Origin: Vulcanimicrobiota bacterium
GTDB lineage: Bacteria > Vulcanimicrobiota > Xenobia > Xenobiales > JADMJV01
Direction: 5' to 3'
Assembly: GCA_050250895.1 (NCBI GenBank)
Contig: JBFWNU010000003.1
Location: forward strand, 160,001-224,000
DNA: 64,000 nucleotides
The position numbers and the translations under genes are program-made. Below the pieces are notes generated by a model that worked only from the letters and a program-made list of their open reading frames with translations, was not told where the DNA came from and did not search any database. This document shows, piece after piece, positions 21,494 through 56,445 of the stretch. Numbering within the stretch: position 1 is the stretch's first letter; each line of letters begins with the position of its first letter.

Positions 21494-21536
21494 CACTGGC
21501 TCGCCGTTGCGTGGGCCGGGACCAGGATGGGCCCGG

Positions 21537-21619
21537 TTGTGCGCCGCACAATGAGTCGACCGGCGTGTACGGCGCACACGTGCGCCGCACAATAGCTCGA
21601 CCGAGGTGTGCGGCGCACA
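21537..21619. repeat. Cluster of four short palindromes (T)GTGCG-N-CGCAC(A)
   Basis: At 21537-21551, 21565-21579 (1 mismatch), 21580-21590, 21607-21619. Confidence 0.85.
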
Positions 21620-21703
21620 TTTGGCAGGCGGCGAGGGCTCGCACCTGTGGTTGGCGGCGTCGGTCTAGCGGTACAGTCGCGGGGGCGCATTTCGGATTTC
21701 GAG

Positions 21704-21908
21704 GTTGCGGCGACGGTGAAGTGACCCCCGCTAGTCGTGCTTTCTCGCTGACGGGGTCGCTGAGCCGTCGCCCCGAGCGCGCTCCTAGCGCGGGCAGTTC
21801 CATCAGGTTCGACGTGGTCTGATAACTGCGCCCGCGCGCCTTTCAACGACGCTCACGCCCTTCTCCGTTGCAGTCCTTGCTCACGTCCCGGGGCGCTGGC
21901 GAGCGCCC
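21704..21908 (+). repeat. Structured ~200-nt non-coding repeat, copy 1
   Basis: Co-linear with 24704-24893; shared blocks GTTGCGGCGACGGWGAAGTGACC, GCTGAGCCGTC, TCACGCCCTTCTCCGTTGCASTCCTTGCTCACGTCC, GGCGCTGGCGAGCGCCC. Confidence 0.9.
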
Positions 21909-21937
21909 TTTCGTGAAAGGGCGCGCCAGCGCCCCGG
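21888..21937. terminator. Long GC hairpin 15 bp downstream of the immunity gene
   Basis: CCGGGGCGCTGGCG-A-GCGCCCTTTC-GT-GAAAGGGCGC-GCCAGCGCCCCGG; no U-tract, so terminator role uncertain. Confidence 0.45.
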
Positions 21938-21952
21938 TGGCTTGGGGGTCCC

Positions 21953-22240
21953 TCAGGGAACTCCCAAGCCCTTCATTACCAAAGCCTCCATTCGGTCGAC
22001 ATGGTTGCGATATTCCTCGACAGAGATATTGGGTGCTTCCTGCCAACTCATAAACAGGGGAATGAACCAGGTTAGAGCGACCAAGCGTTGTGGCATATGC
22101 TCAACATTAGGGTTCAGACACTCAAGTAGAGACTCCACTCTTCGAAAACCTTCTTGGTCAAAACCCTTCATCCTGAGTATTGCAAAGAATCCTGATTCCC
22201 ACTCATGCTCGAGTTTTTCGATGATTTCTTGATTGTTCAC
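21953..22240 (-). CDS. Putative immunity protein of the upstream Rhs toxin
   Basis: 95 aa, GTG start with RBS GGAGG, 9 bp after the toxin stop; visibly lower GC. Confidence 0.75.
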   Translation of the reverse strand: MNNQEIIEKLEHEWESGFFAILRMKGFDQEGFRRVESLLECLNPNVEHMPQRLVALTWFIPLFMSWQEAPNISVEEYRNHVDRMEALVMKGLGVP

Positions 22241-22249
22241 GCTACCTCC

Positions 22250-23392: not shown

Positions 23393-23404
23393 GCACACGT
23401 GTGC
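23393..23404. repeat. Palindrome GCACACGTGTGC upstream of HNH-1
   Basis: Perfect 12-bp palindrome between a C-run and CAAAAAAAA; same core recurs at 24322-24335. Confidence 0.8.
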
Positions 23405-23638: not shown

Positions 23639-23644
23639 GGACCT

Positions 23645-24703
23645 ATGATTACCGATGATAAGCAACGCGAATTCTGGACCCTCGAGAACTTGAGCAAGCT
23701 CCCTCACGAGCGGCTGGAAAGGGTGATCCGTCGCCTGGCCAACACCCTGGCCCTGACTCGCATCCTGCTGGGGCGATGTCTGTTGGCTATCGAGCGCACC
23801 GACTTCTGCGCCGAGACCGGCTGCCACTCGGCTATCCATTTCGCCCGGCTGATCAAAGTCGAGAAGCGCGAGGCGCTAGATTCGATGCGGATCGCCGGCC
23901 ATCTCGAAGAGCTGCCGCTGTTTTCCAAAGCCTGCGAAGAGAACCGAATCTGCTGGTCCAATCTGCGTGTGGTCACCCGCATCGTGACGCCCGAGACCGA
24001 AGAGGCCTGGCTTGACCTGGCGGTGCGCCTTAAGCCTCATCGCCTGGCCCGTCTGGTGGCCGGGGCCAGCCGCGGTGACACTCCGGCCGAGGCGGCCCTG
24101 AACCTGGTAGAAGAGGTGGAACTCCGTTTCCGGGTCGCTCCCGAGGTGTCCGAGTTGTGGTCGCGGGCCGTGGGCGTGATCTCGAGGGAACACGGCGGCA
24201 CGGTCAATCCGGCCGAGGCGTTCGAATGGATCCTGGCCGACTTTCTGGGCGGCCAGGTAGAGCAGCTCAGGGTCGAGGCCGCCCAGGAGCTGGTCGCTCC
24301 GGTCGAGGCGCTGGCAATGCAGACACACGTGTGTCCGGGCGAGTCGAAGTTGCAATTGGCCGGACGGTTGAGGTTCAATCCGAGCAAGCGGCAGGCGACT
24401 GCCGCCCAGCGCCGGGCAGTGCTGCGGCGGGATGGCTATCGCTGCTCTTGCCCGGGCTGCCCCAATCGACTTTGGCTCGATGTGCATCACGTGGTGTTCT
24501 ACTGTCGCGGCGGACCGACGGTGCCCGAAAACCTGGTGGTGGTGTGCTCGCGCTGCCACAAGAACATCCATCAGGGCATCCTGCGCGTGAGCGGGGTGGC
24601 TCCCCAGGGGCTGGTCTGGCGCGATCGCCGGGGGCGCGAGCTGGAACGCGAGCCCGAGAGCGGGCTATTGGAATGGCTGCTGGAATGGGCTCGAGCTGGC
24701 TAA
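23645..24703 (+). CDS. DUF222-like HNH endonuclease (HNH-1)
   Basis: RRDGYRCSCPGC..LDVHHVVFYCRGGPTVPENLVVVCSRCHKNIH; N-terminal helical domain homologous to 55123 ORF (WSNLRVVTRIVTPETEEAWL). Confidence 0.9.
   Translation: MITDDKQREFWTLENLSKLPHERLERVIRRLANTLALTRILLGRCLLAIERTDFCAETGCHSAIHFARLIKVEKREALDSMRIAGHLEELPLFSKACEENRICWSNLRVVTRIVTPETEEAWLDLAVRLKPHRLARLVAGASRGDTPAEAALNLVEEVELRFRVAPEVSELWSRAVGVISREHGGTVNPAEAFEWILADFLGGQVEQLRVEAAQELVAPVEALAMQTHVCPGESKLQLAGRLRFNPSKRQATAAQRRAVLRRDGYRCSCPGCPNRLWLDVHHVVFYCRGGPTVPENLVVVCSRCHKNIHQGILRVSGVAPQGLVWRDRRGRELEREPESGLLEWLLEWARAG
24322..24335. repeat. Palindrome GACACACGTGTGTC inside HNH-1
   Basis: Perfect 14-bp palindrome encoding THVC in the interdomain linker. 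Confidence 0.8.
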
Positions 24704-24893
24704 GTTGCGGCGACGGAGAAGTGACCTTTTCTGGCTTTGGGGTGCTGAGCCGTCACCCGCGGGCGCGCTCGTTTCGTGCGCAGTTCAATCAGGTTTATCG
24801 TGGTCCGAGAACCGCGCCCGGGCGCCTTTCAGCCATGATCACGCCCTTCTCCGTTGCACTCCTTGCTCACGTCCGCGGCGCTGGCGAGCGCCC
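24704..24893 (+). repeat. Structured ~190-nt non-coding repeat, copy 2 (candidate ncRNA or element end)
   Basis: Starts at the first base after the HNH-1 TAA; GCGACGGAGAAG (24710-24721) pairs with CTTCTCCGTTGC (24846-24857). Confidence 0.9.
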
Positions 24894-24983
24894 CTTTGGG
24901 CCCAGAAAGCGTCATCGCGCCTAGCCCCGATTTCGCGGTAGACGATCTCGGCGAGGCGTCCGTGGCCGAATCCCTCAAAAACT

Positions 24984-25063: not shown

Positions 25064-25078
25064 CCCGGCGTGGAGCGG

Positions 25079-36083: not shown

Positions 36084-36568
36084 GGTGGCTCATCTGTATT
36101 CTCTTGGCGCTGGCCGCGCCGGGTTGGGCCCAACTGCGCGACCTGGACGGAGCGACCCATTCGGTGGCCGGGCTGGCCGCCGGGCAGAAAGCCACGGTGT
36201 TGGTGGTGTGGTGCAGTCGCTGTCACAGCTGCCGGGGCGTCGAGAACGATCTGGCCGCCTTCTCGCGCGACGGAGTCAGGCTGTTTGCGGTCGACCCGCA
36301 TCCAGCCGACGACGCCCAGCGAGTGCGCTCGTTTCTGGCCGAGCAGGGCCTGAGTCTCGAGGTCTTGCTCGACTCTGACCAGAGCTTTCTGCGCCAGTAT
36401 CAGATCGACCGCACCACCACCGCCCTGGTCTTCGACCAGACTGGAAAGCTTCGCTACTTCGGCCCCTTCCAAGACTATGCGGCGGAAGCCGTCGACGAGG
36501 TCCTGGGCGGGCAAGAGGTTACGGTGTCGACTCGTCCATTGCAGGGGTGCCCGATTCCTCGCCCTTAG
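36080..36568 (+). CDS. Exported redoxin (AhpC/TSA/TlpA-like), copy 1
   Basis: Signal peptide, WCSRCHSC, ALVFDQTGKLRYFG, GCPI. Confidence 0.85.
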   Translation: MRWLICILLALAAPGWAQLRDLDGATHSVAGLAAGQKATVLVVWCSRCHSCRGVENDLAAFSRDGVRLFAVDPHPADDAQRVRSFLAEQGLSLEVLLDSDQSFLRQYQIDRTTTALVFDQTGKLRYFGPFQDYAAEAVDEVLGGQEVTVSTRPLQGCPIPRP

Positions 36569-36644
36569 GATAAGTGGACCCATTCGGGCCATTTCTAGGG
36601 CCATGCGCAGGAACCCCTCCGGACTGCGGGAAGAACGGTATTCG

Positions 36645-37805
36645 ATGAACTTCGTTTATCTGTCCCCCCATTTTCCCCCGAATTACCAGGCCTTTTGTAT
36701 CGAGCTGCGTTTGCAGGGGGCGAATGTGCTGGGTCTGGCCGAGGCTCCGTATGATTCTCTCTCGCCCCGTTTGCGCAACGTCTTGACCGAGTATTATCGG
36801 GTCGACGACATGCACGACTATGATCAGCTGGTGCGGGCGTTGGGCTATTTCACGCACCAGTACGGCAAAATCGACCGGCTCGAATCGCACGCCGAGTACT
36901 GGCTCGAGACCGAGGCCAGGCTGCGCACCGACTTCAACATCACCGGTCTGCGCGCCCACGACCTGCCCACCATGAAGCGCAAGTCGCTGATGAAGCAGAA
37001 GTTCATCGAGGCCGGCGTCGAGGTGGTTCGCGGCGAGGTCGCCCGCGATCGCAATCACGCCCTCAAGATCGCTAAGAAGCTGGGCTTTCCGCTGGTGGCC
37101 AAGCCCGACATCGGGGTGGGAGCGGCCGGAACTTTTCGTTTCGACGATGCCGACGCTTTGAGCGCGTTCTACGAGCAGAGCCATCCTCACGACTACATCC
37201 TCGAGCAATACATCGACGGCGTGTTGACCAGCTTCGATGGCCTGGTCGACCGCGATGGCAAGCCGGTGTTGCTGGCCTCGCACGTGTTCTCGGACGGAAT
37301 CATGGACGTGGTCAGCCAGGACCTCGACATGTTTTACTACTCCGAGCGCGAGCTGCCCCAGGACCTCGAGCAGGCCGGCCGGGCGGTGCTGGCCGCCTAT
37401 GGCCTGACCGAACGATTCTTCCATTTCGAGTTCATCCGTCGCCACAGCGACCAGAAGCTGGTCGGCCTCGAGGTCAACATGCGCCCGCCGGGAGGGTTGA
37501 CCACCGACATGTTCAACTTCGCCAACGACATCGATATCTATCGCCAGTGGGCCCGAGTGGTAGTGGGCAAGTCGTTCGAACCCGATCCGGCCCGGCCGTT
37601 TCATTGCTGCTACATCGGTCGCAAGGACAACCGCACCTACCGCCACGACCACGATCAGGTGTTGGCCCGGGCGGGCGACTTGCTGTGCCACGAGGAGCGG
37701 GTCCAATCGGTCTTTCGGGGGGCCATCGGGGATCACGGCTATCTGCTACGTTCACCCCAATTGAACGACTTGCTAGAGGTAGCCAACTACGCTTTGGAGA
37801 GCTAG
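36645..37805 (+). CDS. ATP-grasp domain protein, copy 1
   Basis: MNFVYLSPHFP, AKPDIGVGA, LEQYIDG, FFHFEF, LEVNMRPPG. Confidence 0.9.
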   Translation: MNFVYLSPHFPPNYQAFCIELRLQGANVLGLAEAPYDSLSPRLRNVLTEYYRVDDMHDYDQLVRALGYFTHQYGKIDRLESHAEYWLETEARLRTDFNITGLRAHDLPTMKRKSLMKQKFIEAGVEVVRGEVARDRNHALKIAKKLGFPLVAKPDIGVGAAGTFRFDDADALSAFYEQSHPHDYILEQYIDGVLTSFDGLVDRDGKPVLLASHVFSDGIMDVVSQDLDMFYYSERELPQDLEQAGRAVLAAYGLTERFFHFEFIRRHSDQKLVGLEVNMRPPGGLTTDMFNFANDIDIYRQWARVVVGKSFEPDPARPFHCCYIGRKDNRTYRHDHDQVLARAGDLLCHEERVQSVFRGAIGDHGYLLRSPQLNDLLEVANYALES

Positions 37806-38537: not shown

Positions 38538-38708
38538 CCCTGAGCGGCCTCTCTGGCCGCTTTCAACCTCGGCATGAGGCTGGGGTGTAAAGTACCGAGC
38601 TTCGGGTTCTGCCCGTGGCGCGGACGAGGTGGGACCGCAAACCATTGTCAATTTGCCTCTTTGGATATCAAGAAGATGTCATGTGAGGAGCGGTTTGTCC
38701 ACTTCGGA

Positions 38709-39682: not shown

Positions 39683-41217
39683 AGCGGCGCCTCGTGCCAA
39701 TAGCGGATACTGAGGTCGCTGCCGGCCGTGGTGGGAAAGCGCGGCGGCGGTTCGTTAGCTAGCGTCGCATCATAGATGATGTTGGGCGTGCCGTAGCCGT
39801 TCAGGCCACCCATGCCGGCCAGGGTGGTCCCGTCCGCCGGATTGAACAGGTTGTAGTCGGGAGTGTGTCCGCTCGAGATGCCGCCATAGATGGCCATGCG
39901 TCCCGGGGCGCTGGTGGTGGCATTCTGCACCGAAAGCCGGTCGCGGGCCATGATGGTGGCATAGAGCGAGAGAGGATCGGTCGAGTTGCGAGGGATGAGA
40001 GCGGTGTTGCCGGTGATCTCGACCCGATTGGCCACGATGCCGAGTCGATCGCTGGTCGAGGTGGGCTTGCTGCCATCCGGGGTGTCGGCGCGCAAGATGT
40101 CGCCGGTGATGACGATGTTCTTCAGAGCGGCGTGGTCGACCGCCACCGTGTGGGCGTTCTTGTTGGTGCCCGAGAAGCTGGCGATGTTGCCGTTAGAGAA
40201 GATGACTCCGGTGCCCATCCCGGGCACGGTGACAGGCGCACCAGAAGGCGGAGTGACGATGCGCGTGCTCGAGACGGAGTCCTCTTCGACGGTGGTCGTC
40301 TGACCGGCCTGAACGATGGTGAGGACGAAGTTGCCCGAGCCGTTCACGTTCATGGTCATGGCATCGACATCGCCATCGATAAAGACTCCGCCGGCGGGGT
40401 TGACGGTCACACCGGCGGGAGGGGCCGGAGGCGGGTTGCCGCCCCAGGCGGCCGAGGCCTGGGCGATGGCGCTGGTGGGCATGGGAATGGGAGCAACGCC
40501 TGCTTGCACCTCGCTGAGGCCGCCGGTCACCAGGCGGTCGTACCCGTCCCCGTACGAATACGGCGCGTTGGAACTCGAGTAGTAGTGGATGCCATCGGGG
40601 CTGCTGGCATCTACGCCTGAGCTGGTGATCCGCCCATCGATGGCCGGTGTCGCCGGAGCAGGCCCGGTGAAATAGCTCTGACTGATGTACATCCGCAACA
40701 CGCCGTTGTGATGAACCGGGCCCTCGCTCTTCCAGCCCTGGCCGATGACGACATCCCAAAGCCCGCCCGAGGACAGGTCGGTGAATTCTCCGAACTCGGC
40801 GAAGCTCTGGCCGGCCTGGACCCAGGCCACGATCTGCCAGCGATCGCCGCCATCGCGCGAGGCCCGCGAGGTCAGGCGATAGAGACGAATGGTGTCGATG
40901 CCGTTGGGTGGCGTTTGGGGGTCGGCCTCGATCTGGCAAGACCAGTCCCAGTTGCCCAGGCTGCCGGTGCGCACCGGCGAGGGCGTGACCGTGTTGCACG
41001 GTTCGCCAGCGTTGGCCAGGGTGTGAGCGATCCAGGCCATCGAATCGCGCACGCCCGCATCGGCGGCCAGCGACGCCTCGGTGTCGATGCGATTCTTGGT
41101 GGCCGCCGCCAGGTCGGTGGGCACCACCAGCATGAAGCCCGCGGCCAGGCCCGTCAACAGGAGAACTCCCAGCAGCGCCACCATCATCGCGGCGCCTCGT
41201 CGTGAAATTGATACCAC
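39679..41217 (-). CDS. PilX-like minor pilin with large beta-rich domain, copy 1
   Basis: RRG|AAMMVALLGVLLL (no Glu5), ASLAADAGV, EGPVHHNG, EPPPRFP. Confidence 0.8.
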   Translation of the reverse strand: MVSISRRGAAMMVALLGVLLLTGLAAGFMLVVPTDLAAATKNRIDTEASLAADAGVRDSMAWIAHTLANAGEPCNTVTPSPVRTGSLGNWDWSCQIEADPQTPPNGIDTIRLYRLTSRASRDGGDRWQIVAWVQAGQSFAEFGEFTDLSSGGLWDVVIGQGWKSEGPVHHNGVLRMYISQSYFTGPAPATPAIDGRITSSGVDASSPDGIHYYSSSNAPYSYGDGYDRLVTGGLSEVQAGVAPIPMPTSAIAQASAAWGGNPPPAPPAGVTVNPAGGVFIDGDVDAMTMNVNGSGNFVLTIVQAGQTTTVEEDSVSSTRIVTPPSGAPVTVPGMGTGVIFSNGNIASFSGTNKNAHTVAVDHAALKNIVITGDILRADTPDGSKPTSTSDRLGIVANRVEITGNTALIPRNSTDPLSLYATIMARDRLSVQNATTSAPGRMAIYGGISSGHTPDYNLFNPADGTTLAGMGGLNGYGTPNIIYDATLANEPPPRFPTTAGSDLSIRYWHEAPL

Positions 41218-41237
41218 CTGGGAACTATAGCACATTC

Positions 41238-41817
41238 GTGCGACCTCGAGCAAGAGGCGCAACTCGACCCCGACAACAAGATCTATACCGTCCGCAGCAT
41301 GAATCCCCTCACCTACATGAATCCCGATCCCAACAAGCAAACGCAGGTGAACAAAGGCACCGGCAAGATGTCGACCAACGTCAAGGTGCAGGACAAAGGG
41401 GTCGAGAAGGTGGCCCAGGTCAACGCTCACCACTGGATCGTCGACTCGCAGATGAAAGGCACCGGTTGCATCGGTAACTTCGATTACAAGAGCACCCGCG
41501 AGTTCTGGACCTCGGACCTGCCGTCGTTCTCCTGCCCCATCTACAACGGCTCCTGGACCAGCCAGACCATCAACGAGTGCAAGGTCACTAACGAGATGAC
41601 CGGCGATGTGGCCAAGTTCATGGAGGCGATGTCCCACGAGGTGGTCAAAGAAATCATCTATGTCGACGGCAAGCCGAGCATGACCCGCGAGCTGGTCGAC
41701 TTTTCCAAAGCCGCTCTCGAGGATTCGCTGTTTAGCCTCGACGGCTATCGCAAGGTGTCTGACGCCGAATTTCAGGCGGCTCAGCAGAAGAAGATGATGG
41801 AGATGTACCAGCGTTGA
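41238..41817 (+). pseudogene. 5'-truncated copy of the 35301-36083 gene created by the duplication junction
   Basis: Lacks the first 203 bp, including start codon and signal peptide. Confidence 0.85.
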
Positions 41818-42302
41818 GGTGGCTCATCTGTATTCTCTTGGCGCTGGCCGCGCCGGGTTGGGCCCAACTGCGCGACCTGGACGGAGCGACCCATTCGGTG
41901 GCCGGGCTGGCCGCCGGGCAGAAAGCCACGGTGTTGGTGGTGTGGTGCAGTCGCTGTCACAGCTGCCGGGGCGTCGAGAACGATCTGGCCGCCTTCTCGC
42001 GCGACGGAGTCAGGCTGTTTGCGGTCGACCCGCATCCAGCCGACGACGCCCAGCGAGTGCGCTCGTTTCTGGCCGAGCAGGGCCTGAGTCTCGAGGTCTT
42101 GCTCGACTCTGACCAGAGCTTTCTGCGCCAGTATCAGATCGACCGCACCACCACCGCCCTGGTCTTCGACCAGACTGGAAAGCTTCGCTACTTCGGCCCC
42201 TTCCAAGACTATGCGGCGGAAGCCGTCGACGAGGTCCTGGGCGGGCAAGAGGTTACGGTGTCGACTCGTCCATTGCAGGGGTGCCCGATTCCTCGCCCTT
42301 AG
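41814..42302 (+). CDS. Exported redoxin, copy 2
   Basis: Identical translation to 36080-36568. Confidence 0.85.
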   Translation: MRWLICILLALAAPGWAQLRDLDGATHSVAGLAAGQKATVLVVWCSRCHSCRGVENDLAAFSRDGVRLFAVDPHPADDAQRVRSFLAEQGLSLEVLLDSDQSFLRQYQIDRTTTALVFDQTGKLRYFGPFQDYAAEAVDEVLGGQEVTVSTRPLQGCPIPRP

Positions 42303-42378
42303 GATAAGTGGACCCATTCGGGCCATTTCTAGGGCCATGCGCAGGAACCCCTCCGGACTGCGGGAAGAACGGTATTCG

Positions 42379-43539
42379 ATGAACTTCGTTTATCTGTCCC
42401 CCCATTTTCCCCCGAATTACCAGGCCTTTTGTATCGAGCTGCGTTTGCAGGGGGCGAATGTGCTGGGTCTGGCCGAGGCTCCGTATGATTCTCTCTCGCC
42501 CCGTTTGCGCAACGTCTTGACCGAGTATTATCGGGTCGACGACATGCACGACTATGATCAGCTGGTGCGGGCGTTGGGCTATTTCACGCACCAGTACGGC
42601 AAAATCGACCGGCTCGAATCGCACGCCGAGTACTGGCTCGAGACCGAGGCCAGGCTGCGCACCGACTTCAACATCACCGGTCTGCGCGCCCACGACCTGC
42701 CCACCATGAAGCGCAAGTCGCTGATGAAGCAGAAGTTCATCGAGGCCGGCGTCGAGGTGGTTCGCGGCGAGGTCGCCCGCGATCGCAATCACGCCCTCAA
42801 GATCGCTAAGAAGCTGGGCTTTCCGCTGGTGGCCAAGCCCGACATCGGGGTGGGAGCGGCCGGAACTTTTCGTTTCGACGATGCCGACGCTTTGAGCGCG
42901 TTCTACGAGCAGAGCCATCCTCACGACTACATCCTCGAGCAATACATCGACGGCGTGTTGACCAGCTTCGATGGCCTGGTCGACCGCGATGGCAAGCCGG
43001 TGTTGCTGGCCTCGCACGTGTTCTCGGACGGAATCATGGACGTGGTCAGCCAGGACCTCGACATGTTTTACTACTCCGAGCGCGAGCTGCCCCAGGACCT
43101 CGAGCAGGCCGGCCGGGCGGTGCTGGCCGCCTATGGCCTGACCGAACGATTCTTCCATTTCGAGTTCATCCGTCGCCACAGCGACCAGAAGCTGGTCGGC
43201 CTCGAGGTCAACATGCGCCCGCCGGGAGGGTTGACCACCGACATGTTCAACTTCGCCAACGACATCGATATCTATCGCCAGTGGGCCCGAGTGGTAGTGG
43301 GCAAGTCGTTCGAACCCGATCCGGCCCGGCCGTTTCATTGCTGCTACATCGGTCGCAAGGACAACCGCACCTACCGCCACGACCACGATCAGGTGTTGGC
43401 CCGGGCGGGCGACTTGCTGTGCCACGAGGAGCGGGTCCAATCGGTCTTTCGGGGGGCCATCGGGGATCACGGCTATCTGCTACGTTCACCCCAATTGAAC
43501 GACTTGCTAGAGGTAGCCAACTACGCTTTGGAGAGCTAG
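42379..43539 (+). CDS. ATP-grasp domain protein, copy 2
   Basis: Identical translation to copy 1. Confidence 0.9.
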   Translation: MNFVYLSPHFPPNYQAFCIELRLQGANVLGLAEAPYDSLSPRLRNVLTEYYRVDDMHDYDQLVRALGYFTHQYGKIDRLESHAEYWLETEARLRTDFNITGLRAHDLPTMKRKSLMKQKFIEAGVEVVRGEVARDRNHALKIAKKLGFPLVAKPDIGVGAAGTFRFDDADALSAFYEQSHPHDYILEQYIDGVLTSFDGLVDRDGKPVLLASHVFSDGIMDVVSQDLDMFYYSERELPQDLEQAGRAVLAAYGLTERFFHFEFIRRHSDQKLVGLEVNMRPPGGLTTDMFNFANDIDIYRQWARVVVGKSFEPDPARPFHCCYIGRKDNRTYRHDHDQVLARAGDLLCHEERVQSVFRGAIGDHGYLLRSPQLNDLLEVANYALES

Positions 43540-44271
43540 ATGTACGAAACCCATCGCTGGTGGAGCCCCCACCTGGGGCAAGACATGGAATTTCGGGTCT
43601 ACGGCCATGCTGGCAAGCCCGCCATCGTCTTCCCTTCGCAAGAGGGGCGTTTCTTCGAGTATCACGACTTCGGCATGGTCGAGGCGGTCAAGCCGTGGCT
43701 CGACCAGGGCCGGTTGCGCCTGGTCACGGTCGATGGCATCGACGGCCAGAGCTGGCTTAACAACGACATTCATCCTCACCATCGCGCTTTGCGGGCTCAC
43801 GCTTACGACGCCTACATCATGAACGAGATCGTGCCGTTCGTCGAAGCCATGGCTCCCGATCAGGGCATCATGCTCACGGGTTGCTCGATGGGTGGTTACC
43901 ACTCGGCCAACGTCTTTTTCCGCCACCCCGGCCGCTTCGACACTTTGATCGCCATCAGCGGAGTCTATCGGCTGATGCTGTTCATTGGCGACTACATGGA
44001 CGAGGAGGTCTACTTCCACGTGCCCCTGGCCTACCTGCCCAACCTGCACGACCCGGCGGCGCTCGAGGCTATGCGCCGAGCCCGCATCGTGGTGGTGGTG
44101 GGTCAGGGAGCCTGGGAGCACGACATGGTCCACGACACCCGCGCCCTCGAGCAGATCCTCCAGTCCAAGAACGTCCCGGCCCGCTTTGACTATTGGGGCC
44201 ACGATGTCGACCACGACTGGCCCTGGTGGCGCAAGATGATGCCCCACTTCCTGACCGAACTGGGCATCTAA
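43540..44271 (+). CDS. Alpha/beta-hydrolase esterase, copy 2
   Basis: Identical translation to copy 1. Confidence 0.9.
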   Translation: MYETHRWWSPHLGQDMEFRVYGHAGKPAIVFPSQEGRFFEYHDFGMVEAVKPWLDQGRLRLVTVDGIDGQSWLNNDIHPHHRALRAHAYDAYIMNEIVPFVEAMAPDQGIMLTGCSMGGYHSANVFFRHPGRFDTLIAISGVYRLMLFIGDYMDEEVYFHVPLAYLPNLHDPAALEAMRRARIVVVVGQGAWEHDMVHDTRALEQILQSKNVPARFDYWGHDVDHDWPWWRKMMPHFLTELGI

Positions 44272-44442
44272 CCCTGAGCGGCCTCTCTGGCCGCTTTCAA
44301 CCTCGGCATGAGGCTGGGGTGTAAAGTACCGAGCTTCGGGTTCTGCCCGTGGCGCGGACGAGGTGGGACCGCAAACCATTGTCAATTTGCCTCTTTGGAT
44401 ATCAAGAAGATGTCATGTGAGGAGCGGTTTGTCCACTTCGGA

Positions 44443-44997: not shown

Positions 44998-45416
44998 GGA
45001 GCCCGATGCAATCCTTTGAGAGTCACCCCGTGCTCGACGCCTTTACTTTCCCAATAGAGATTGACCGTGACTTCGAAGAGAAGATAGCCGTAGTTGGCGG
45101 GATTGGTGTCCTGTCGAACCATCTGGAGGTTGCGGGTGTAGCCGGTGCCGGCCGGAAAATTGGCCGTGAAGGGAGCGGCCTCGAGGGCCACGCGAGCGTT
45201 GATGGGGTCATTGATAGGAGCCACCTCGGGAAGGTTGCCGACCCGAACCAGATCGAGCACCTGTCGCGCCACACCCAGGGCTTCATCGGTCTTGGCCGCC
45301 TGCTGGGCGCCGCGAAAAGCCGAGATGATCACTCCCAGCAAAGCCAGCAGCACCAGGCCAAGCACGGCCACGGCCACGATGGTTTCGAGCAGACTCAGGC
45401 CACGCGGCGATTTCAC
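44994..45416 (-). CDS. Prepilin-type (PilV-like) protein, copy 2
   Basis: Identical translation to copy 1. Confidence 0.85.
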   Translation of the reverse strand: MKSPRGLSLLETIVAVAVLGLVLLALLGVIISAFRGAQQAAKTDEALGVARQVLDLVRVGNLPEVAPINDPINARVALEAAPFTANFPAGTGYTRNLQMVRQDTNPANYGYLLFEVTVNLYWESKGVEHGVTLKGLHRAP

Positions 45417-46951
45417 AGCGGCGCCTCGTGCCAATAGCGGATACTGAGGTCGCTGCCGGCCGTGGTGGGAAAGCGCGGCGGCGGTTCGTTAGCTAGCGTC
45501 GCATCATAGATGATGTTGGGCGTGCCGTAGCCGTTCAGGCCACCCATGCCGGCCAGGGTGGTCCCGTCCGCCGGATTGAACAGGTTGTAGTCGGGAGTGT
45601 GTCCGCTCGAGATGCCGCCATAGATGGCCATGCGTCCCGGGGCGCTGGTGGTGGCATTCTGCACCGAAAGCCGGTCGCGGGCCATGATGGTGGCATAGAG
45701 CGAGAGAGGATCGGTCGAGTTGCGAGGGATGAGAGCGGTGTTGCCGGTGATCTCGACCCGATTGGCCACGATGCCGAGTCGATCGCTGGTCGAGGTGGGC
45801 TTGCTGCCATCCGGGGTGTCGGCGCGCAAGATGTCGCCGGTGATGACGATGTTCTTCAGAGCGGCGTGGTCGACCGCCACCGTGTGGGCGTTCTTGTTGG
45901 TGCCCGAGAAGCTGGCGATGTTGCCGTTAGAGAAGATGACTCCGGTGCCCATCCCGGGCACGGTGACAGGCGCACCAGAAGGCGGAGTGACGATGCGCGT
46001 GCTCGAGACGGAGTCCTCTTCGACGGTGGTCGTCTGACCGGCCTGAACGATGGTGAGGACGAAGTTGCCCGAGCCGTTCACGTTCATGGTCATGGCATCG
46101 ACATCGCCATCGATAAAGACTCCGCCGGCGGGGTTGACGGTCACACCGGCGGGAGGGGCCGGAGGCGGGTTGCCGCCCCAGGCGGCCGAGGCCTGGGCGA
46201 TGGCGCTGGTGGGCATGGGAATGGGAGCAACGCCTGCTTGCACCTCGCTGAGGCCGCCGGTCACCAGGCGGTCGTACCCGTCCCCGTACGAATACGGCGC
46301 GTTGGAACTCGAGTAGTAGTGGATGCCATCGGGGCTGCTGGCATCTACGCCTGAGCTGGTGATCCGCCCATCGATGGCCGGTGTCGCCGGAGCAGGCCCG
46401 GTGAAATAGCTCTGACTGATGTACATCCGCAACACGCCGTTGTGATGAACCGGGCCCTCGCTCTTCCAGCCCTGGCCGATGACGACATCCCAAAGCCCGC
46501 CCGAGGACAGGTCGGTGAATTCTCCGAACTCGGCGAAGCTCTGGCCGGCCTGGACCCAGGCCACGATCTGCCAGCGATCGCCGCCATCGCGCGAGGCCCG
46601 CGAGGTCAGGCGATAGAGACGAATGGTGTCGATGCCGTTGGGTGGCGTTTGGGGGTCGGCCTCGATCTGGCAAGACCAGTCCCAGTTGCCCAGGCTGCCG
46701 GTGCGCACCGGCGAGGGCGTGACCGTGTTGCACGGTTCGCCAGCGTTGGCCAGGGTGTGAGCGATCCAGGCCATCGAATCGCGCACGCCCGCATCGGCGG
46801 CCAGCGACGCCTCGGTGTCGATGCGATTCTTGGTGGCCGCCGCCAGGTCGGTGGGCACCACCAGCATGAAGCCCGCGGCCAGGCCCGTCAACAGGAGAAC
46901 TCCCAGCAGCGCCACCATCATCGCGGCGCCTCGTCGTGAAATTGATACCAC
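45413..46951 (-). CDS. PilX-like minor pilin, copy 2 (native upstream region)
   Basis: Identical to copy 1; extended -10 TGCTATAGT just upstream of the GTG. Confidence 0.8.
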   Translation of the reverse strand: MVSISRRGAAMMVALLGVLLLTGLAAGFMLVVPTDLAAATKNRIDTEASLAADAGVRDSMAWIAHTLANAGEPCNTVTPSPVRTGSLGNWDWSCQIEADPQTPPNGIDTIRLYRLTSRASRDGGDRWQIVAWVQAGQSFAEFGEFTDLSSGGLWDVVIGQGWKSEGPVHHNGVLRMYISQSYFTGPAPATPAIDGRITSSGVDASSPDGIHYYSSSNAPYSYGDGYDRLVTGGLSEVQAGVAPIPMPTSAIAQASAAWGGNPPPAPPAGVTVNPAGGVFIDGDVDAMTMNVNGSGNFVLTIVQAGQTTTVEEDSVSSTRIVTPPSGAPVTVPGMGTGVIFSNGNIASFSGTNKNAHTVAVDHAALKNIVITGDILRADTPDGSKPTSTSDRLGIVANRVEITGNTALIPRNSTDPLSLYATIMARDRLSVQNATTSAPGRMAIYGGISSGHTPDYNLFNPADGTTLAGMGGLNGYGTPNIIYDATLANEPPPRFPTTAGSDLSIRYWHEAPL

Positions 46952-47007
46952 CTGGGAACTATAGCACATTCTCACGGTAGATGTCGGGGTCGTGAGCGAG
47001 AAGTGTC

Positions 47008-48966
47008 TCAGCGCAGACTTCGCTCCAGGTCGCGGCGGGGGATGAAGTCGACCACCTCGAGCTGTCCCTGCTCGAGCATGGGGCGCACCAACAAGCGGTG
47101 GTTGCGTCCGATTCTGAGCGAGCGCAAATCCGGCCGCAGCTTGAGACTCTTCATCTGGCTCAAGACCGACACCGAACCGGCACATAGCTCGCCCAGTCTC
47201 ATCAGGGCTTTGCGGCGCAGCTCCTCGTCGCAGCTTTGAAAGGCCTTCATTCCCCGAGGACTAAACAGCGGCAGTAGAGGTGGCCAGCTGATCGCTGGCG
47301 CGTCCTCTTCCAGCGAGTCCTCGACGGCACGAGCTACGGCGGGATCGGGTGAGGGCTGAGAGCTTGCCACCACTCTCGCTTGTTCACGCAATCTCTTCCT
47401 CTCGGCGTTGCCCTCATGAAGCAAGCCTTTCAACTCCCTGACCCGCTCGCGCAGACGAATTGCTTCGGGGTCGTCTATCACCCGGGTAACTACTTCTGGC
47501 TGGCGGGCTAATTCTCGCTCGAGTTGCTTTTGTTTTGCGGCCAGCTCCGCTCGAAGTTTCTGGGCTGCTTGTTTAGCTTGGGCTAACTCCGCTTGCAGCT
47601 GTTCGGTCGCGCGCGCCTGCTCTTCCGAGTGGGAATCATCTTCTTGGACTGTCTCTAGCCCTCGGTCCAGCTGGGCGTCAAGGATGTCTTCGGCCAGGTC
47701 CCCAGGCGGTAAATTCAAACGGTCACGAGCCATCTCGATCTGATCTACCAGTCCGATAGAGTCGAGATCTCTCCCCATAATCAGGCCCCGGGCCAAGAGG
47801 ATGCCGAGGGCTGGATATTTCTTGAGGATGACGTAGGTCAGATCGACCAGATCAGGCGTGTAGTCGCGAGCCAGAAGCTCGCCCAGCAGCTGCTCCAACT
47901 TGTCGAGGATGGGGGAATCGGTCTCGACCATCTCGAGTTCGAAGAGCTGGTCGGGCAAGACCTCGTCGCACTTTTCCATCTGGATTCGGGCCCGCTCGTA
48001 TTCCCCGGCCCGCAACAGCTGATCGACGAAGTCGAGACGGTGCCCAGGGTCACTCATGGGGCGTTCCAGGAACTCTTCGAGCGCCTGCTCAGCCGCCTCC
48101 CAGAGTCGATGGTCTTGCAGTCTGTGCCATACGAGCAGTAGCTGATGGTCGTCTTCAATCCTGGTAAAGTCGAGCTTGCAAAGCTCTCGAATCGGCAGGT
48201 CCGCCAGGTCGTGCGAGTCCAATAGGGCGGGGTCATTGCTCGGGATCATGCTGGTTGCGGAGGCCTCGTCCTCGTCGAGACAGCATTTCTTGTATTTCTT
48301 GCCACTTCCACAGTGGCACGGGTCGTTACGGCCGACCTTCTTGGTGCTGCGCCGCACGGTGAAGCCGCTGGCGATTCTCATCAGCCGTTGCGGAAGCCGG
48401 TCCAGCACCGACTGGTGGAGAGGCTCGAGCAGCCGTCGGCCAAACCGCTCCGCCTGGGCCGAGCCGACCAGCCCGACCCAGCGCGAGGCAACTTCGTTTA
48501 GATGTTCGTCGTCGAGCCGCCGGGCGGCGATGCCGATGACCATGCCTGCCTCCATCGCCAGCGGCTTGCGACTGAGTTGTCGCAGCAGTTGTACGAGACG
48601 CCTGGGAGGAGACGGCCCCTCTAGAAGCTCCGTGCAAATCAAGAGGCAAAGGGCCTCTCTCTCGTGGCTCAGAGTGCCTCCCTCGACGGCGTCGAGCAAA
48701 GCCTCCAGTTTGTTGCCGTCGGTGCAACCCAGAATGTTGAAGATGCTCTGTGGCTCTTCGAGGAAGGTGAGCCCGGGCACTACCAGCGAGACATCGAGCC
48801 GATGACCGGCCTGGGCGGCGGCCATCACTAGCGCTTCGACCGATTCCCCCCGGTCGATCAGCGCCTTGACCAGGGGCTCGAGCGGGCCCTCGAGGGCCTG
48901 GGCCAGGTTTTCAATTTCTGGCCTGGTGAGTGCGGTGGACCTGATTTTCTCTAATAGAGGCTCCAT
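47008..48966 (-). CDS. SEC-C motif protein with coiled coil and C-terminal RelE/ParE-like domain
   Basis: KVGRNDPCHCGSGKKYKKCC; coiled coil; C-terminal LRSLRIGRNHRLL..LEVVDFIPR. Confidence 0.8.
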   Translation of the reverse strand: MEPLLEKIRSTALTRPEIENLAQALEGPLEPLVKALIDRGESVEALVMAAAQAGHRLDVSLVVPGLTFLEEPQSIFNILGCTDGNKLEALLDAVEGGTLSHEREALCLLICTELLEGPSPPRRLVQLLRQLSRKPLAMEAGMVIGIAARRLDDEHLNEVASRWVGLVGSAQAERFGRRLLEPLHQSVLDRLPQRLMRIASGFTVRRSTKKVGRNDPCHCGSGKKYKKCCLDEDEASATSMIPSNDPALLDSHDLADLPIRELCKLDFTRIEDDHQLLLVWHRLQDHRLWEAAEQALEEFLERPMSDPGHRLDFVDQLLRAGEYERARIQMEKCDEVLPDQLFELEMVETDSPILDKLEQLLGELLARDYTPDLVDLTYVILKKYPALGILLARGLIMGRDLDSIGLVDQIEMARDRLNLPPGDLAEDILDAQLDRGLETVQEDDSHSEEQARATEQLQAELAQAKQAAQKLRAELAAKQKQLERELARQPEVVTRVIDDPEAIRLRERVRELKGLLHEGNAERKRLREQARVVASSQPSPDPAVARAVEDSLEEDAPAISWPPLLPLFSPRGMKAFQSCDEELRRKALMRLGELCAGSVSVLSQMKSLKLRPDLRSLRIGRNHRLLVRPMLEQGQLEVVDFIPRRDLERSLR

Positions 48967-51663: not shown

Positions 51664-51665
51664 GG

Positions 51666-53740: not shown

Positions 53741-53815
53741 CGATGTTGGTTCAACCCACCGGGTTCGTGTGGTGTTCCCATAGTGGTAATATTTCTTGGT
53801 GTGTGCTAAGTTGGT

Positions 53816-54430
53816 GTGGTGGAATATGAAAGCTTACGCGCGTGTGCCCTGGCAGGTGCCCTTACCGAGGACGATTGGCGATCCATTCGCAGGCAGGCTC
53901 GCCAGGGTGACGTTGGGGCCGAGTTTCTCCTGGGCTTTGCCGACGTTTCGCCGAGAACGCGCCGCAAGTGGCTGACTCGGGCCGCCGACCACGGCCACGC
54001 CGAGGCCTTCTTTCTCTTGCATGGTGGCTATCCTATTCACAACGCGGGCGGCTGGCTCGAGCGCTCGGCCGAGCGAGGTTGCGCCGAGGCCCAATCCGCG
54101 CTCGGGTGCTATTACGCCTGGGAGCCGAATCGCGATGAGGTGAAAATGCGTTATTGGTATGGCCAGGCCGCTCTCCAGGGTGGTGGAGTGGCGATGTATG
54201 AATTTGGCTTTAGCCTGTTGCTGGGCGAAGGTGGGCCGGCCGACCCCGAGGGCGCGGTGGCCTGGCTCGAAAAGGCCGCCGCCACCGATGCTCACACGGC
54301 AGAAGAGGCGCGGGGCTTGTTGGGTGATGTGCTCAGCGACGGCCTTTACGGTGTCGCTCGCGACCCTGAGCGGGCGGAGTATTGGAGAGCCCCTCACTTC
54401 CGGCCGGAAGTGGTGAGCAAGTGGGGATAG
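53816..54430 (+). CDS. Sel1/TPR repeat protein
   Basis: WLTRAADHGHAEA, WLERSAERGCAEAQ, WYGQAALQG, WLEKAA. Confidence 0.88.
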   Translation: MVEYESLRACALAGALTEDDWRSIRRQARQGDVGAEFLLGFADVSPRTRRKWLTRAADHGHAEAFFLLHGGYPIHNAGGWLERSAERGCAEAQSALGCYYAWEPNRDEVKMRYWYGQAALQGGGVAMYEFGFSLLLGEGGPADPEGAVAWLEKAAATDAHTAEEARGLLGDVLSDGLYGVARDPERAEYWRAPHFRPEVVSKWG

Positions 54431-56209
54431 ACTCTGGCGAAAAGGCGGGCGGCTAGAACTTGCTCGAGGCTGAGATGGGGATGGGCGCGCTGAAACGATG
54501 GCCAGTCGCCCCGGACTTCCCTGTCCCACTGCACCACCTGGGCAACATCCGTGCCCCCTCAGTTCACCAGTCGGGGGCGGGGCGGGTTGTCGGAGAGCAC
54601 GATTCCCAGGCACGTTCCGGCCGGAAGTGCGACTCGCGGCGGGAGCGCCCCCCGGTCGTGCGGGGCCCTGGAGACAAGGCTCTAGTTATCGTACCAGGGA
54701 ACGTAGGGCTGGATGAGGGTCAGTTCTGCGATCACTCCTTTCTCTTCGCTCACGTGGAGTTCGAAAGGCCACACTTTGTAATACCCGTCATCGGCGGGGC
54801 CGAGGTGAGCTGAGATTCGCACGACCGGGTCGCCGAGCGCCGCGATGAGTTGACCATCCAGATACAGTCGCTGGCCGGTGATGCGCGGGTTGAAAGGGTG
54901 CCGATGCCACTCGGCCCCGGCGGCGTCAATTTCTTGCTCGGAGTTGGCTGGAGTGACTCCGTTGATGGTTAGCTCTCGACGGGGATATTCGACCATCGGC
55001 AGCCCGCGGGAAGTTCCGGCCGGAAGTCCAAAAAGTGAGATTTTACGCCATTTTCGCTTGTTGTTTGGGGTTGAAAAATGCTAAAATATTGGTATTCCCC
55101 CGAACCACTCCCTGGAGGTCCTATGTCTCTTTCCACGCTTGTTTCCAGCCTGCGTCAACTCGGCCCCGAGCTGCTGCATCAGTGCAACCAGGCCGTCCGC
55201 CACGAACTAGCTCGCAGCGAGTGGACCATGGCCGCCCACCTGCTGGCCACCGAACGGACCGGACTGCATCGCAAGAAGGGTTATGGCGACGTGCTCGGCT
55301 ATGCCGAGAAGTTGCTCGACCTGCCACGCTACAAGGCCTGCGAGTTGCTGCGGGTGGCGCGAGCGTTCGAGCTCATGCCTGACCTCTCCGAGGCCTTTCG
55401 CACGGGCGAAATCGGCTGGACCAAGGTGCGCGAGATCACGCGAGTGGCCACTCCCAAGACCGAAGCGACCTGGCTTGAACGGGCTCGCCAGCACGACGCC
55501 GACACAGTGGCCCGCATGGTCTCGGTGTCGCCCACCGAGTATAAGCGGGGCAAGGCGCTCGAAGCCGCACGAGAAGCTGGGCAGAGTGTGCCCGAGCAGG
55601 CAAACGCGCCCGAGGTGATCCCGCAGCTGATCAACCTGACGCTGCGGTTTACGCCCGAGCAGTATGCGGTCTTCGAACAGGCTATCAGCCTGGCCCGAGC
55701 CCGGGCGGGCAAGCGGCTCAGCCGAGAGGTCGCTCTGGTGGCTCTGTCAGAAGCGACCCTGGCGCAGGCCGACAGTCGCAGCCAGGTTAGACATCAGGTG
55801 CTGATCCAGCTCGATCCGTTGAGCGGCAAGGGTTTCTACGACACCGAACGCGGGCCACTGCCGGCCCCGCAGCGAGTGGTCGACGAGGCGCTGGCCTCGG
55901 GACCGGCCGTGGTCGAGGGTGAGCAACTTGAACCCCCGCTGCCGGTGAAAACCGGGCCTCGCCAGGCGATCCCGGTGAAGGAATACCGGGTGGTGTTCGC
56001 CCGGGCCCGGGGGCGGTGCGAGAATTGTGGGTGCAAAGGCGGACCGCTGCATGTCCACCATGTTCGCCCGCGCTCTCGGGGCGGTGGCAACCGGGCATGC
56101 GAATTGAGGTTGCTGTGTCCTGGTTGTCATCGGGCCAGTCACGACCACGACTTCGCCACCGACGCCGGCTGGCGGGCGGCCAGAGAGGCGGCCACTTCCG
56201 GCCGGAAGT
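54395..56209. repeat. Four dispersed copies of the palindrome TTCCGGCCGGAA around HNH-2
   Basis: CACTTCCGGCCGGAAGTG 54395-54412; 54615-54626; 55014-55025; ACTTCCGGCCGGAAGT 56194-56209. Confidence 0.92.
54682..54996 (-). CDS. Small hypothetical protein, possibly a 5'-truncated fragment
   Basis: 104 aa between palindromes 2 and 3; no RBS; palindrome 17 bp upstream of the ATG. Confidence 0.55.
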   Translation of the reverse strand: MVEYPRRELTINGVTPANSEQEIDAAGAEWHRHPFNPRITGQRLYLDGQLIAALGDPVVRISAHLGPADDGYYKVWPFELHVSEEKGVIAELTLIQPYVPWYDN

Positions 56210-56445
56210 CAGGGCCGGCCGCGCAGCAAGTGGAGGTCACCGAATTCGTGCCAGAGATAGCCATGCTCGATGGCGGAGGCGTAGTCGCGAGCCAGTCGCT
56301 CGCGGCCGGCTATGGCCTCGAGCATGGCCAGGTGGCTGGCTTTGGGCTCGTGAAAGCCGGTGAGCAGGTCGTCGACCACGGCCAGGGGGCGGTCGGGAGT
56401 GATGACCAGCTCGGTCCAGCCGCTCGGGGGGCCGGCGTGGGCTGA
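55123..56445 (+). CDS. DUF222-like HNH endonuclease (HNH-2)
   Basis: RBS GGAGG; GEIGWTKVREITRVATPKTEATWL; RARGRCENCGC..LHVHHVRPRSRGG..LLCPGCHRASH; last ~78 codons are antisense read-through of queA. Confidence 0.88.
   Translation: MSLSTLVSSLRQLGPELLHQCNQAVRHELARSEWTMAAHLLATERTGLHRKKGYGDVLGYAEKLLDLPRYKACELLRVARAFELMPDLSEAFRTGEIGWTKVREITRVATPKTEATWLERARQHDADTVARMVSVSPTEYKRGKALEAAREAGQSVPEQANAPEVIPQLINLTLRFTPEQYAVFEQAISLARARAGKRLSREVALVALSEATLAQADSRSQVRHQVLIQLDPLSGKGFYDTERGPLPAPQRVVDEALASGPAVVEGEQLEPPLPVKTGPRQAIPVKEYRVVFARARGRCENCGCKGGPLHVHHVRPRSRGGGNRACELRLLCPGCHRASHDHDFATDAGWRAAREAATSGRKSGPAAQQVEVTEFVPEIAMLDGGGVVASQSLAAGYGLEHGQVAGFGLVKAGEQVVDHGQGAVGSDDQLGPAARGAGVG

Follow-up and report, generated by a model that had tools for sequence, protein, structure and literature searches.

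Do genes for nucleases of the HNH type carry short DNA sites of their own, and, if they do, what could such sites be for? This question is raised by a 64,000-nucleotide (nt) stretch of a Vulcanimicrobiota genome (GenBank assembly GCA_050250895.1, contig JBFWNU010000003.1, positions 160,001 to 224,000), referred to here as the window, in which an earlier note, made from the sequence alone, had singled out two homologous HNH genes, HNH-1 and HNH-2, each marked by its own palindrome. In the follow-up analysis reported here, the two genes are placed in a multicopy family, nearly every clade of which has its own perfect palindrome, located upstream of the gene and again within the gene or at its end. 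Such paired, clade-specific palindromes suggest a selfish nuclease family that recognizes its own DNA site; that the proteins bind or cleave this site, or that they contribute in this way to mobility or to the growth of arrays, is what we infer from these patterns.

Two HNH genes and their palindromes

The palindrome of HNH-1, CACACGTGTG, has exactly two exact copies in the window, at 23394-23403 and 24324-24333, and none of 100 shuffled versions of the window contained two or more matches to it. The palindrome of HNH-2, TTCCGGCCGGAA, has exactly four copies, at 54398, 54615, 55014, and 56196, compared with a mean of 0.00 in the shuffled sequences. Exact matches to both palindromes were thus found at the sites that the earlier note had assigned to them, with its coordinates for CACACGTGTG being 1 to 2 nt off, and an exact-match search of the window agrees with its claim that neither palindrome occurs at the other HNH locus. 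The stretch that had been read as CCAAAAA after each upstream copy is indeed present, as CCAAAAAAAA at HNH-1 and as GTCCAAAAAG at HNH-2. The features of the two loci, with the palindromes to the left of the genes designated P-left, the internal one designated P-int, and the clades as described below, are as follows.

23393..23404: P-left of HNH-1 (clade 1a), GCACACGTGTGC, followed by an A-run
23645..24703, plus strand: HNH-1 gene, 352 amino acids (aa) from ATG; the open reading frame (ORF) is open from a TTG at 23591
24322..24335: P-int of HNH-1, GACACACGTGTGTC, in the part of the gene coding for the linker, encoding ..THVCP..
54398..54409: palindrome copy 1 of the HNH-2 locus, the 18-nt CACTTCCGGCCGGAAGTG, within the 3' end of a Sel1-repeat ORF (53816-54430)
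54615..54626: palindrome copy 2, TTCCGGCCGGAA, separated from copy 1 by 205 bp of unique DNA
54682-54996, minus strand: 104-aa ORF, contained in a unique 387-bp segment left of copy 3
55014..55025: palindrome copy 3, P-left of HNH-2; clade-2a homology begins just 3' of it, at ~55032
55123..56445, plus strand: HNH-2 gene (clade 2a), with the probable ATG at 55123
56196..56207: palindrome copy 4, ACTTCCGGCCGGAAGT, encoding ..TSGRK.., at the 3' end of the conserved coding region

The positions 23645 and 55123 are the likely start codons because the paralogues have in-frame stops upstream of them. In HNH-1, P-int lies ~931 bp from P-left. The similarity of HNH-2 to its relatives stops at approximately residues 373 to 378, at the last palindrome, beyond which the frame stays open into the antisense strand of a queA-like gene. 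That the two are homologous HNH genes, as previously claimed, is borne out by matches of both to PF01844 above the cut-off (E values of 1.1e-6 for HNH-1 and 8.9e-8 for HNH-2) and by 27% identity in a tblastn comparison. The DUF222 model PF02720 gives a match to HNH-2 that falls under its 24.4-bit cut-off (21.3 bits, E = 1.9e-4) and no match to HNH-1.

A multicopy family in one genome

The genome, 9.50 Mb in 17 contigs with a G+C content of 63%, is 99.6% complete. The census of family loci that the earlier note had proposed, carried out by tblastn with the HNH-1 and HNH-2 proteins, yielded 53 loci, 41 of them of at least 1000 nt, and most of the reading frames are open. Clade 1a, the HNH-1 type, has ~10 copies with 91 to 97% amino acid identity, clade 1b has 3 copies, and clade 1c has ~8. 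Clade 2a consists of HNH-2 and three copies at ~70% identity, and clade 2b comprises 17 to 19 copies that are 41 to 47% identical to HNH-2; in the latter clade, third codon positions are less conserved (0.75) than first and second ones (0.93). HNH-1, together with its upstream region, makes up a repeat of ~1.3 to 1.6 kb, which is why 14 of the 19 genomic copies of CACACGTGTG form seven pairs ~931 bp apart.

By sequence comparison, both genes are members of a multicopy DUF222-type HNH family that falls in the superfamily of the REP13E12-type "HNH endonuclease signature motif" proteins. An alignment of nine family sequences matched a DUF222-annotated protein in hhalign with a probability of 99.6% (E = 9.8e-24, 320 columns), and the more distant matches of the family search carry PF02720. 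The family profile finds 1201 clusters (at 50% identity) at E ≤1e-30 and 10011 at E ≤1e-10. The closest named relative is an HNH endonuclease from a metagenome-assembled genome (MAG) of Candidatus Eremiobacteraeota (89% identity), and a scan of the genome collection with a single clade-2b protein found no relative.

Pairing of palindromes with clades

The palindromes of the individual clades, with their positions relative to the gene, are listed below.

Clade 1a: CACACGTGTG / GACACACGTGTGTC, at about -200 and +730
Clade 1b: TGACCCGCGCGGGTCA, at -210 and +1089 (gene end)
Clade 1c: TCCCCCGGGGGA upstream in 2 loci, TCGTCCCCCGGGGGACGA in the linker in 5 to 6 loci
Clade 2b: ACTTCCAGCTGGAAGT, at about -300 and about +850, with a spacing of ~1155 bp
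Clade 2a: arms as in clade 2b, with the centre GGCC (HNH-2), GCGC (C5:117890), or GTGC (C11:32427), upstream and at the gene 3' end

All these types share one scheme: the outer bases are GAC-like, the arm is specific to the clade, and the centre is 4 nt long. In three clade-2a genes, the centre of the 3' palindrome equals that of the palindromes upstream of the same gene. The second copy lies in the linker in clades 1a, 1c, and 2b and at the gene 3' end in clades 1b and 2a. In clade 1a, the 10-nt core is found upstream, at about -200, in 7 of the 9 near-full-length copies.

The pairing is far more frequent than in the rest of the genome. A recurrent 10-nt palindrome was found at 31 of the 41 loci and in 13% of 2000 random 3.3-kb windows; a stricter test, in which the upstream palindrome had to be 12 nt or longer and its core had to be found again in the body of the gene, was passed by 19 of the 41 loci, compared with 22 of 5000 random positions (0.44%). 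On the protein tree, eight palindrome labels needed 9 changes (the minimum is 7, the shuffled mean was 23.1, and none of 200 shuffles was as low), with the locus C7:431345 labeled "none" despite an internal palindrome at +707, its contig ending 587 nt upstream. The earlier note had predicted that the palindrome would vary along with the nuclease phylogeny, and this is the case: seven sequence types map onto the protein tree, and further types are found in other genera.

The note had also accepted that its idea would fail if the palindromes were common irrespective of HNH genes or if homologous loci were not enriched in them; in fact, homologous loci are strongly enriched and the clade-1 palindromes are nearly exclusive to HNH loci. 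Within 2 kb of an HNH locus lie 18 of the 19 genomic sites of CACACGTGTG, 5 of 5 of ACCCGCGCGGGT, 9 of 9 of GTCCCCCGGGGGAC, and 11 of 13 of TCCCCCGGGGGA. The clade-2 palindromes, of the form ACTTCC-N4-GGAAGT, are distributed differently: the motif CTTCC-N4-GGAAG has 413 sites, 111 of which are within 2 kb of an HNH locus, such neighbourhoods making up 2.8% of the genome. The looser motif TTCC-N4-GGAA forms 42 tandem arrays, of which 13 are located within 2.5 kb of clade-2 genes, nearly always on the 5' side. These arrays are true tandem repeats, many of them with an array-specific unit, so that the hairpin is all they have in common. The HNH-2 locus is exceptional in that both of its segments between palindromes (205 and 387 bp) are unique. 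The idea that palindromes delimit captured segments is not supported here: unique DNA between palindromes is found only at that locus, the other 41 arrays being mostly plain tandem repeats.

The internal copy

In clades 1a, 1c, and 2b, the internal site occupies the same alignment column (343, 325, and 346, respectively), within a segment modeled as disordered (AlphaFold, predicted local distance difference test [pLDDT] score of <50 at residues 217 to 248). Its conservation is best seen in clade 2b, where, across 17 copies, the site has a mean conservation of 0.98 within a hypervariable linker whose flanking parts are at 0.5 to 0.8. Only 0.2% of 1102 windows of the gene are as conserved, and 14 of the 17 genes have kept the copy. 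Judging from this pattern, the internal copy of clade 2b is apparently maintained under selection at the DNA level. In clade 1a, the site is invariant in the 9 to 10 aligned copies.

Shuffling of modules at the internal palindrome was considered and rejected, as pairwise identities to the left and to the right of it correlate (r = 0.83 in clade 2b), with no outlier pairs; in clade 1a, the identity outliers all involve one 5'-truncated copy.

Limits of the elements

The relation of the palindromes to the ends of the repeated DNA differs between the clades. In clade 2b, the DNA to the left of each copy is unique, and the palindrome is the point from which the copies are homologous. On its 3' side follow an AT-rich near-palindrome of 24 nt that is conserved, ~230 nt of variable sequence, a stretch resembling a promoter (TTGATC-17-TAAAAT, recognized by eye in the alignment), and GGAGG with the ATG; on the right, the element is limited by the stop codon, without a palindrome. 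No target-site duplications were seen by eye at the clade-2b ends. Homology among the clade-1a copies runs from 25 to 45 nt left of P-left to just past the stop codon, often with a dispersed repeat (repeat A, see below) next to it. In clade 2a, its start lies 0 to 120 nt beyond the closest palindrome on the upstream side, and in 3 of the 4 copies the 3' palindrome is where it stops. A test for hairpin ends of the IS200/IS605 type found a palindrome near each element end in clades 1b and 2a, while the right end in clades 1a, 1c, and 2b is a stop codon without a palindrome. Since the second palindrome is inside the gene in the latter three clades, the pair does not simply bracket a mobile unit.

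A 5'-truncated clade-2b copy at C2:768505-769314 (minus strand, genome G000), which starts at about residue 126, has kept its internal palindrome. The sequence CTTCCAGCTGGAAG is located 49 nt upstream of the truncation point, which places a palindrome at the deletion endpoint.

Domains and predicted fold of the protein

In HNH-1, a helical DUF222-like N-terminal domain (N-domain) is joined through a disordered linker to an HNH domain, whose Cys and His residues are conserved; C267, H281, H282, C301, C304, H305, and H309 are invariant in nine representatives. The AlphaFold model (mean pLDDT of 70.8) has a confident helical N-domain (residues 10 to 150) and an HNH domain. In a Foldseek search against the PDB, the matches of the HNH domain were only to HNH nucleases and were all weak (best E value of 0.019); nothing was found at E ≤0.001, the weak rows being accounted for by the HNH domain or by low-probability sigma-factor matches.

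When residues 1 to 200 were modeled as a symmetric homodimer, the score was 0.78, compared with 0.00 for the best of three controls; the runs agreed in at least 74% of contacts, and the partner pLDDT was at least 80. Of 30 proteins solved as pairs of one chain, 20 reached the mark used here, as did 1 of 23 solved as single chains; these counts apply only roughly, because the alignment used was one made for this analysis. The model supports a predicted pairing of the N-domain as a symmetric dimer.

Three members of the family (P0134, P0139, and P0141) are fusions with a RuvB-like AAA+ ATPase, and others carry a RuvA_C domain (P0128, P0212, P0213, and P0216). These fusions hint that the family may work on branched DNA. 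No Ruv domains were detected in the proteins of the window. A methyltransferase domain, as would be expected next to an HNH-type type II restriction endonuclease to protect its palindromic site, was not found in the neighbouring ORFs scanned, a set that falls short of all flanks and of the rest of the genome.

The family in other genomes

Members of the family were found in 26 of the 41 related genomes searched, including every genome of two taxonomic families (f1 and f2), and the number of matches in a single genome reaches 35. Among 28 loci fetched from other genomes, 5 have convincing palindrome pairs. In one of these genomes, G033, the palindrome GACACGCGCGTGTC has 7 sites, 5 of them within 400 nt of family genes, and one gene has upstream, internal, and downstream copies. 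In G015, both palindrome sites (2 of 2) are in family genes. In G009, there are 30 sites at no more than one mismatch. Five of these are at most 600 nt away from family genes, with 4 of the 5 inside the region coding for the N-domain, and most of the remaining sites are clustered. The same arms can be found with other centres in different genomes: GACAC-ACGT in the genome studied here corresponds to GACAC-GCGC in G033, and GACCC-GCGC to GACCC-ACGT in G015.

When plasmids were searched for canonical DUF222 genes, there was a single match (Rhodococcus erythropolis, NZ_CP050126.1, locus L121). This gene has a 16-nt palindrome, CGTCCCCGCGGGGACG, 109 nt upstream (at ~1766-1781) and no internal copy (n = 1); in this one case, the arms equal the ones found in clade 1c.

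What the palindromes could be for

What makes the palindrome a candidate for the cognate site of the protein, in our view, is that the pairs are matched and exclusive, that their internal copy is apparently under selection, and that the N-domain is modeled as a dimer. Whether each dimeric nuclease does recognize the palindrome of its own clade is a proposition to which we would give an even chance. In the mechanism envisaged, the protein would bind the clade-specific palindrome (GAC-arm, 4-nt centre, arm-GTC) as a symmetric dimer through its helical N-domain, and the HNH domain, held on a disordered tether, would nick or cut at the palindrome. The element would keep one site near its left end and a second one in the tolerant linker-coding region or at the gene 3' end. 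Breaks at these sites would cause the element to spread by recombination and to undergo gene conversion and, in clade 2, would also make DNA that bears the palindrome multiply locally in tandem, giving REP-like arrays. In its most general form, the proposal is of a new class of selfish elements, an HNH counterpart of the repetitive extragenic palindromes (REPs) and REP-associated tyrosine transposases (RAYTs). In such elements, a dimeric N-domain would read a palindrome whose arms are set by the clade and whose centre is copied locally, and breakage or resolution of this palindrome by the nuclease, perhaps in an extruded cruciform and with help from RuvB, would drive spread, gene conversion, and array formation. 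This wider proposal is tentative, and we consider it more doubtful than probable.

A number of observations speak against site-specific recognition and spread. A self-site inside the nuclease's own gene would require protection or a nicking mode. A recurrent palindrome is missing from 10 of the 41 loci, most clade-1c copies have the internal site only, and no convincing pair was seen in 23 of the 28 loci from other genomes; in G002, only one of the three sites has a family gene nearby. For 29 of the 42 arrays, the 2.5 kb on either side contain no HNH gene. The nonpalindromic centres GTGC and GCAC are found at 113 clade-2 sites, so that a perfect palindrome is not required in this clade. The distance from the left palindrome to the conserved clade-2a element varies (~0, 9, 45, and 120 nt). 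In clade 1a, 13% of windows of equal length are as invariant as the internal site, and pairwise left and right identities give no sign of mosaicism around the internal site. The clustering of labels on the tree partly reflects descent, as copies that share a label are kin; the weight therefore rests on the number of distinct matched pairs, not on the tree statistic, and the independent palindrome events number about 7 in this genome and 3 to 4 elsewhere. In a search for empty sites, the DNA of the HNH-2 region gave only two matches (65 and 81 nt, 75% identity) in the same-genus genome and none in four genomes of the same taxonomic family, and the queA-like protein was not found in five relatives.

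The same palindromes could alternatively be cis-regulatory sites at which the protein itself or a host factor represses the gene, by looping or as a roadblock, or the internal copy could act as an RNA hairpin at the domain boundary, in either case without any cutting or mobility. Two identical sites, one on either side of the promoter and of the sequence that codes for the N-domain, with a distance between them that stays constant (~931 bp in clade 1a and ~1155 bp in clade 2b), would fit such control, as would the symmetric dimer modeled for the N-domain and the DNA-level conservation of the internal site, and a nuclease gene plausibly needs tight regulation. However, the upstream copy of clade 2b is ~270 nt upstream of the promoter recognized by eye, without overlapping it, and coincides with the element limit instead, and the second copy shifts between the linker, the gene end, and, in G009, the N-domain coding region. 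Regulation would also leave unexplained both the invariant catalytic residues of the HNH domain and the 42 tandem hairpin arrays, 29 of which are far from HNH genes, and we consider it unlikely. Those same arrays and the dispersal of the clade-2 hairpins over 413 sites are what would be expected if the palindromes belonged to an independent hairpin repeat, similar to REPs or to miniature inverted-repeat transposable elements, or were a preferred insertion target of a nuclease with no specificity for them. Insertion sequences that target REP hairpins are known; at the clade-2a locus C11:32427, the array unit runs ~12 nt past the palindrome before the element begins, so that the hairpin there belongs to the array, and the distance from palindrome to clade-2a element is variable. 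Such independence is hard to reconcile with the clade-1 palindromes, which are not dispersed (18 of 19, 5 of 5, and 9 of 9 sites at HNH loci), with the presence of clade-own sequences at homologous positions, or with the internal copy under selection in 14 of 17 clade-2b genes. Nor was another candidate found for an enzyme that would mobilize the hairpins: the Y1 transposase family PF01797 (RAYT/IS200), which gave matches in six control genomes, has none in this 99.6% complete genome. We consider an independent repeat as unlikely as regulation.

It could also be argued that the pairs have no function, having arisen by chance once per lineage and been inherited by the duplicated copies. Within a clade, the copies are kin and shared labels are to be expected, and the invariance of the clade-1a site is unexceptional. 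Chance is already disfavoured, though, by at least seven different matched pairs in one genome, with more in other genera, by a pair rate of 0.44% at random positions, and by the clade-2b site being a conserved island in a hypervariable linker; we view it as very improbable.

If recognition of a cognate palindrome is real, it would matter well beyond this genome. Genes of the DUF222-HNH type are very common and are routinely annotated merely as "HNH endonuclease," and the REP13E12 members have no assigned function. A covarying cognate DNA site would be the first mechanistic handle on this large family, and one that can be tested directly; it could explain why such repeats are recombination hotspots, and it would add a second, unrelated class of enzymes to the relationship between genomes and hairpins that is known from REP/RAYT. 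The pattern of arms and centres hints at a simple recognition code, possibly useful for protein engineering.

Genomic surroundings of the two loci

Both loci were described in the earlier note as embedded in accessory DNA, and the neighbouring genes agree with that, with the end of an RHS core near HNH-1 and a Sel1-repeat ORF near HNH-2. The additional features are listed below.

21511..21660: hairpin satellite of 41-nt units with arms TGTGCGCCGCACA / TGTGCGGCGCACA, unrelated to the HNH palindromes
21704..21941, plus strand: second copy of repeat A, downstream of the candidate immunity gene
21953-22240, minus strand: candidate immunity ORF, 95 aa
22250..23230, minus strand: orphan rhs C-terminal toxin cassette, a 326-aa ORF with the RHS core end and a variable tip, divergent from HNH-1
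24703..24922, plus strand: copy of repeat A after the HNH-1 stop codon, a dispersed repeat of ~220 to 240 bp that is separate from the HNH element
53816-54430: Sel1-repeat ORF, identified by a profile match

The hairpin satellite disposes of a third copy of the HNH-1 palindrome that had been proposed at 21574. The 11-of-12 match is real (GCACACGTGCGC, with one mismatch), but it is the joint of two 41-nt satellite units; because it is part of a different repeat, with ~38 other matches in the genome, it is not counted here as an HNH-1 palindrome. Some of the satellite-related matches share contig stretches with the TTCC-N4-GGAA arrays.

The 326-aa ORF matches TIGR03696 (RHS-associated core) with an E value of 1.5e-20, and the association goes beyond this locus: the genome contains 27 RHS core-end motifs, 17 of which are no more than 2 kb from a family gene, and, of 27 loci of clades 1a and 1c, 14 are equally close to such a motif. 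Clade-1a genes are divergent from the RHS cassette, and those of clade 1c are located directly upstream of an RHS core on the same strand, the core sequence following the HNH stop codon at a fixed junction. This linkage may reflect duplication of composite units. Repeat A, with 33 blastn matches in the genome, is found within 1 kb of 8 of 12 clade-1a loci; it sits after candidate immunity genes and after the stop codons of clade-1a HNH genes, and some copies contain a 22-nt palindrome, GCGCCCTTTGGCCAAAGGGCGC. Directly left of the HNH-1 neighbourhood, a 1415-aa ORF (17246-21493, plus strand) contains four stretches of the InhA-like MAM domain (PF20773, E = 1.3e-32).

Between the two loci, at 36477-38651 and 42211-44385 and also at 39679-41637, 45413-47185, and 47008-48966, ORFs of equal length recur at an offset of ~5.7 kb; they comprise 442-aa, 405-aa, and 292-aa pairs as well as 652-aa and 590-aa ORFs. 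The equal lengths at this offset suggest a tandem duplication of several genes. On the right side of HNH-2, the queA-like gene (56209-57117, minus strand; PF02547, E = 1.6e-63) encodes a protein with no match at E ≤1e-30 in five related genomes, and its best matches in the genome collection are in Chloroflexota MAGs (56 to 58% identity), so that the right flank of HNH-2 also looks acquired. Known RNA families were found neither in the window at the gathering score nor in four related loci at E ≤1. Among sequencing runs, one DNA run contains a 0.05 share of the sequence words, and no RNA run containing them is listed.

Comparison with known systems

The DUF222-HNH proteins of the REP13E12 type are the closest known relatives in architecture, with the same order of a helical N-domain and an HNH domain with Cys/His zinc motifs and with the same multicopy habit, as repeats of ~1.3 to 1.6 kb within one genome. 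They differ in their fit to the Pfam DUF222 model, which falls below the cut-off for HNH-2 and gives no match for HNH-1. Excerpts of two publications bear on this group: in another bacterium, REP13E12 regions, for which no function is defined, are reported to rank with the loci that undergo gene conversion most often (PMC13061034), and REP13E12/HNH/DUF222 genes are listed among repeat or mobile element-like clusters (PMC10589994). In the excerpts returned by a literature search, neither paired palindromes of the DUF222-HNH family nor an HNH analogue of RAYT was found described.

The analogy with REP/RAYT drawn in the earlier note has some substance for clade 2, with its 42 arrays in a genome in which no Y1 transposase was found, and breaks down for clade 1, whose palindromes are not dispersed at all. 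In both systems, a nuclease-type gene has short palindromic hairpins on its flanks that form a family of their own, the hairpins differ from one gene clade to the next, and, here in clade 2 only, the hairpins are also present in many copies elsewhere (413 sites). Unlike the RAYTs, which are Y1 HUH transposases, single-copy, and vertically inherited, the enzyme here is an HNH (His-Me finger) nuclease encoded in many copies (17 to 19 in clade 2b and ~10 in clade 1a); one palindrome lies within the coding sequence, and the clade-2 hairpins form tandem arrays with array-specific units instead of REPIN doublets.

Free-standing HNH homing genes, such as those of the phage I-HmuI or Mob type, combine a DNA-binding module with a flexible tether and spread by break repair. 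The genes described here resemble them as putatively selfish, stand-alone HNH genes with a separate DNA-binding module and a flexible tether. Homing endonuclease genes normally lack or disrupt their own target, whereas the presumed target here is a symmetric palindrome that is intact one to four times per carrying locus, and there are dozens of chromosomal copies at unrelated sites, with no intron, intein, or phage context seen. Perfect palindromes can extrude four-way junctions, and the nucleases that resolve cruciforms and Holliday junctions work together with RuvAB, as does RuvC; T4 endonuclease VII is an example with a His-Me finger. The likeness to these nucleases lies in the palindromic sites and in the RuvB-like ATPase or RuvA_C domains of some family members, and the differences are that no Ruv domain was detected in the proteins of the window and that the palindromes are short (10 to 22 bp).

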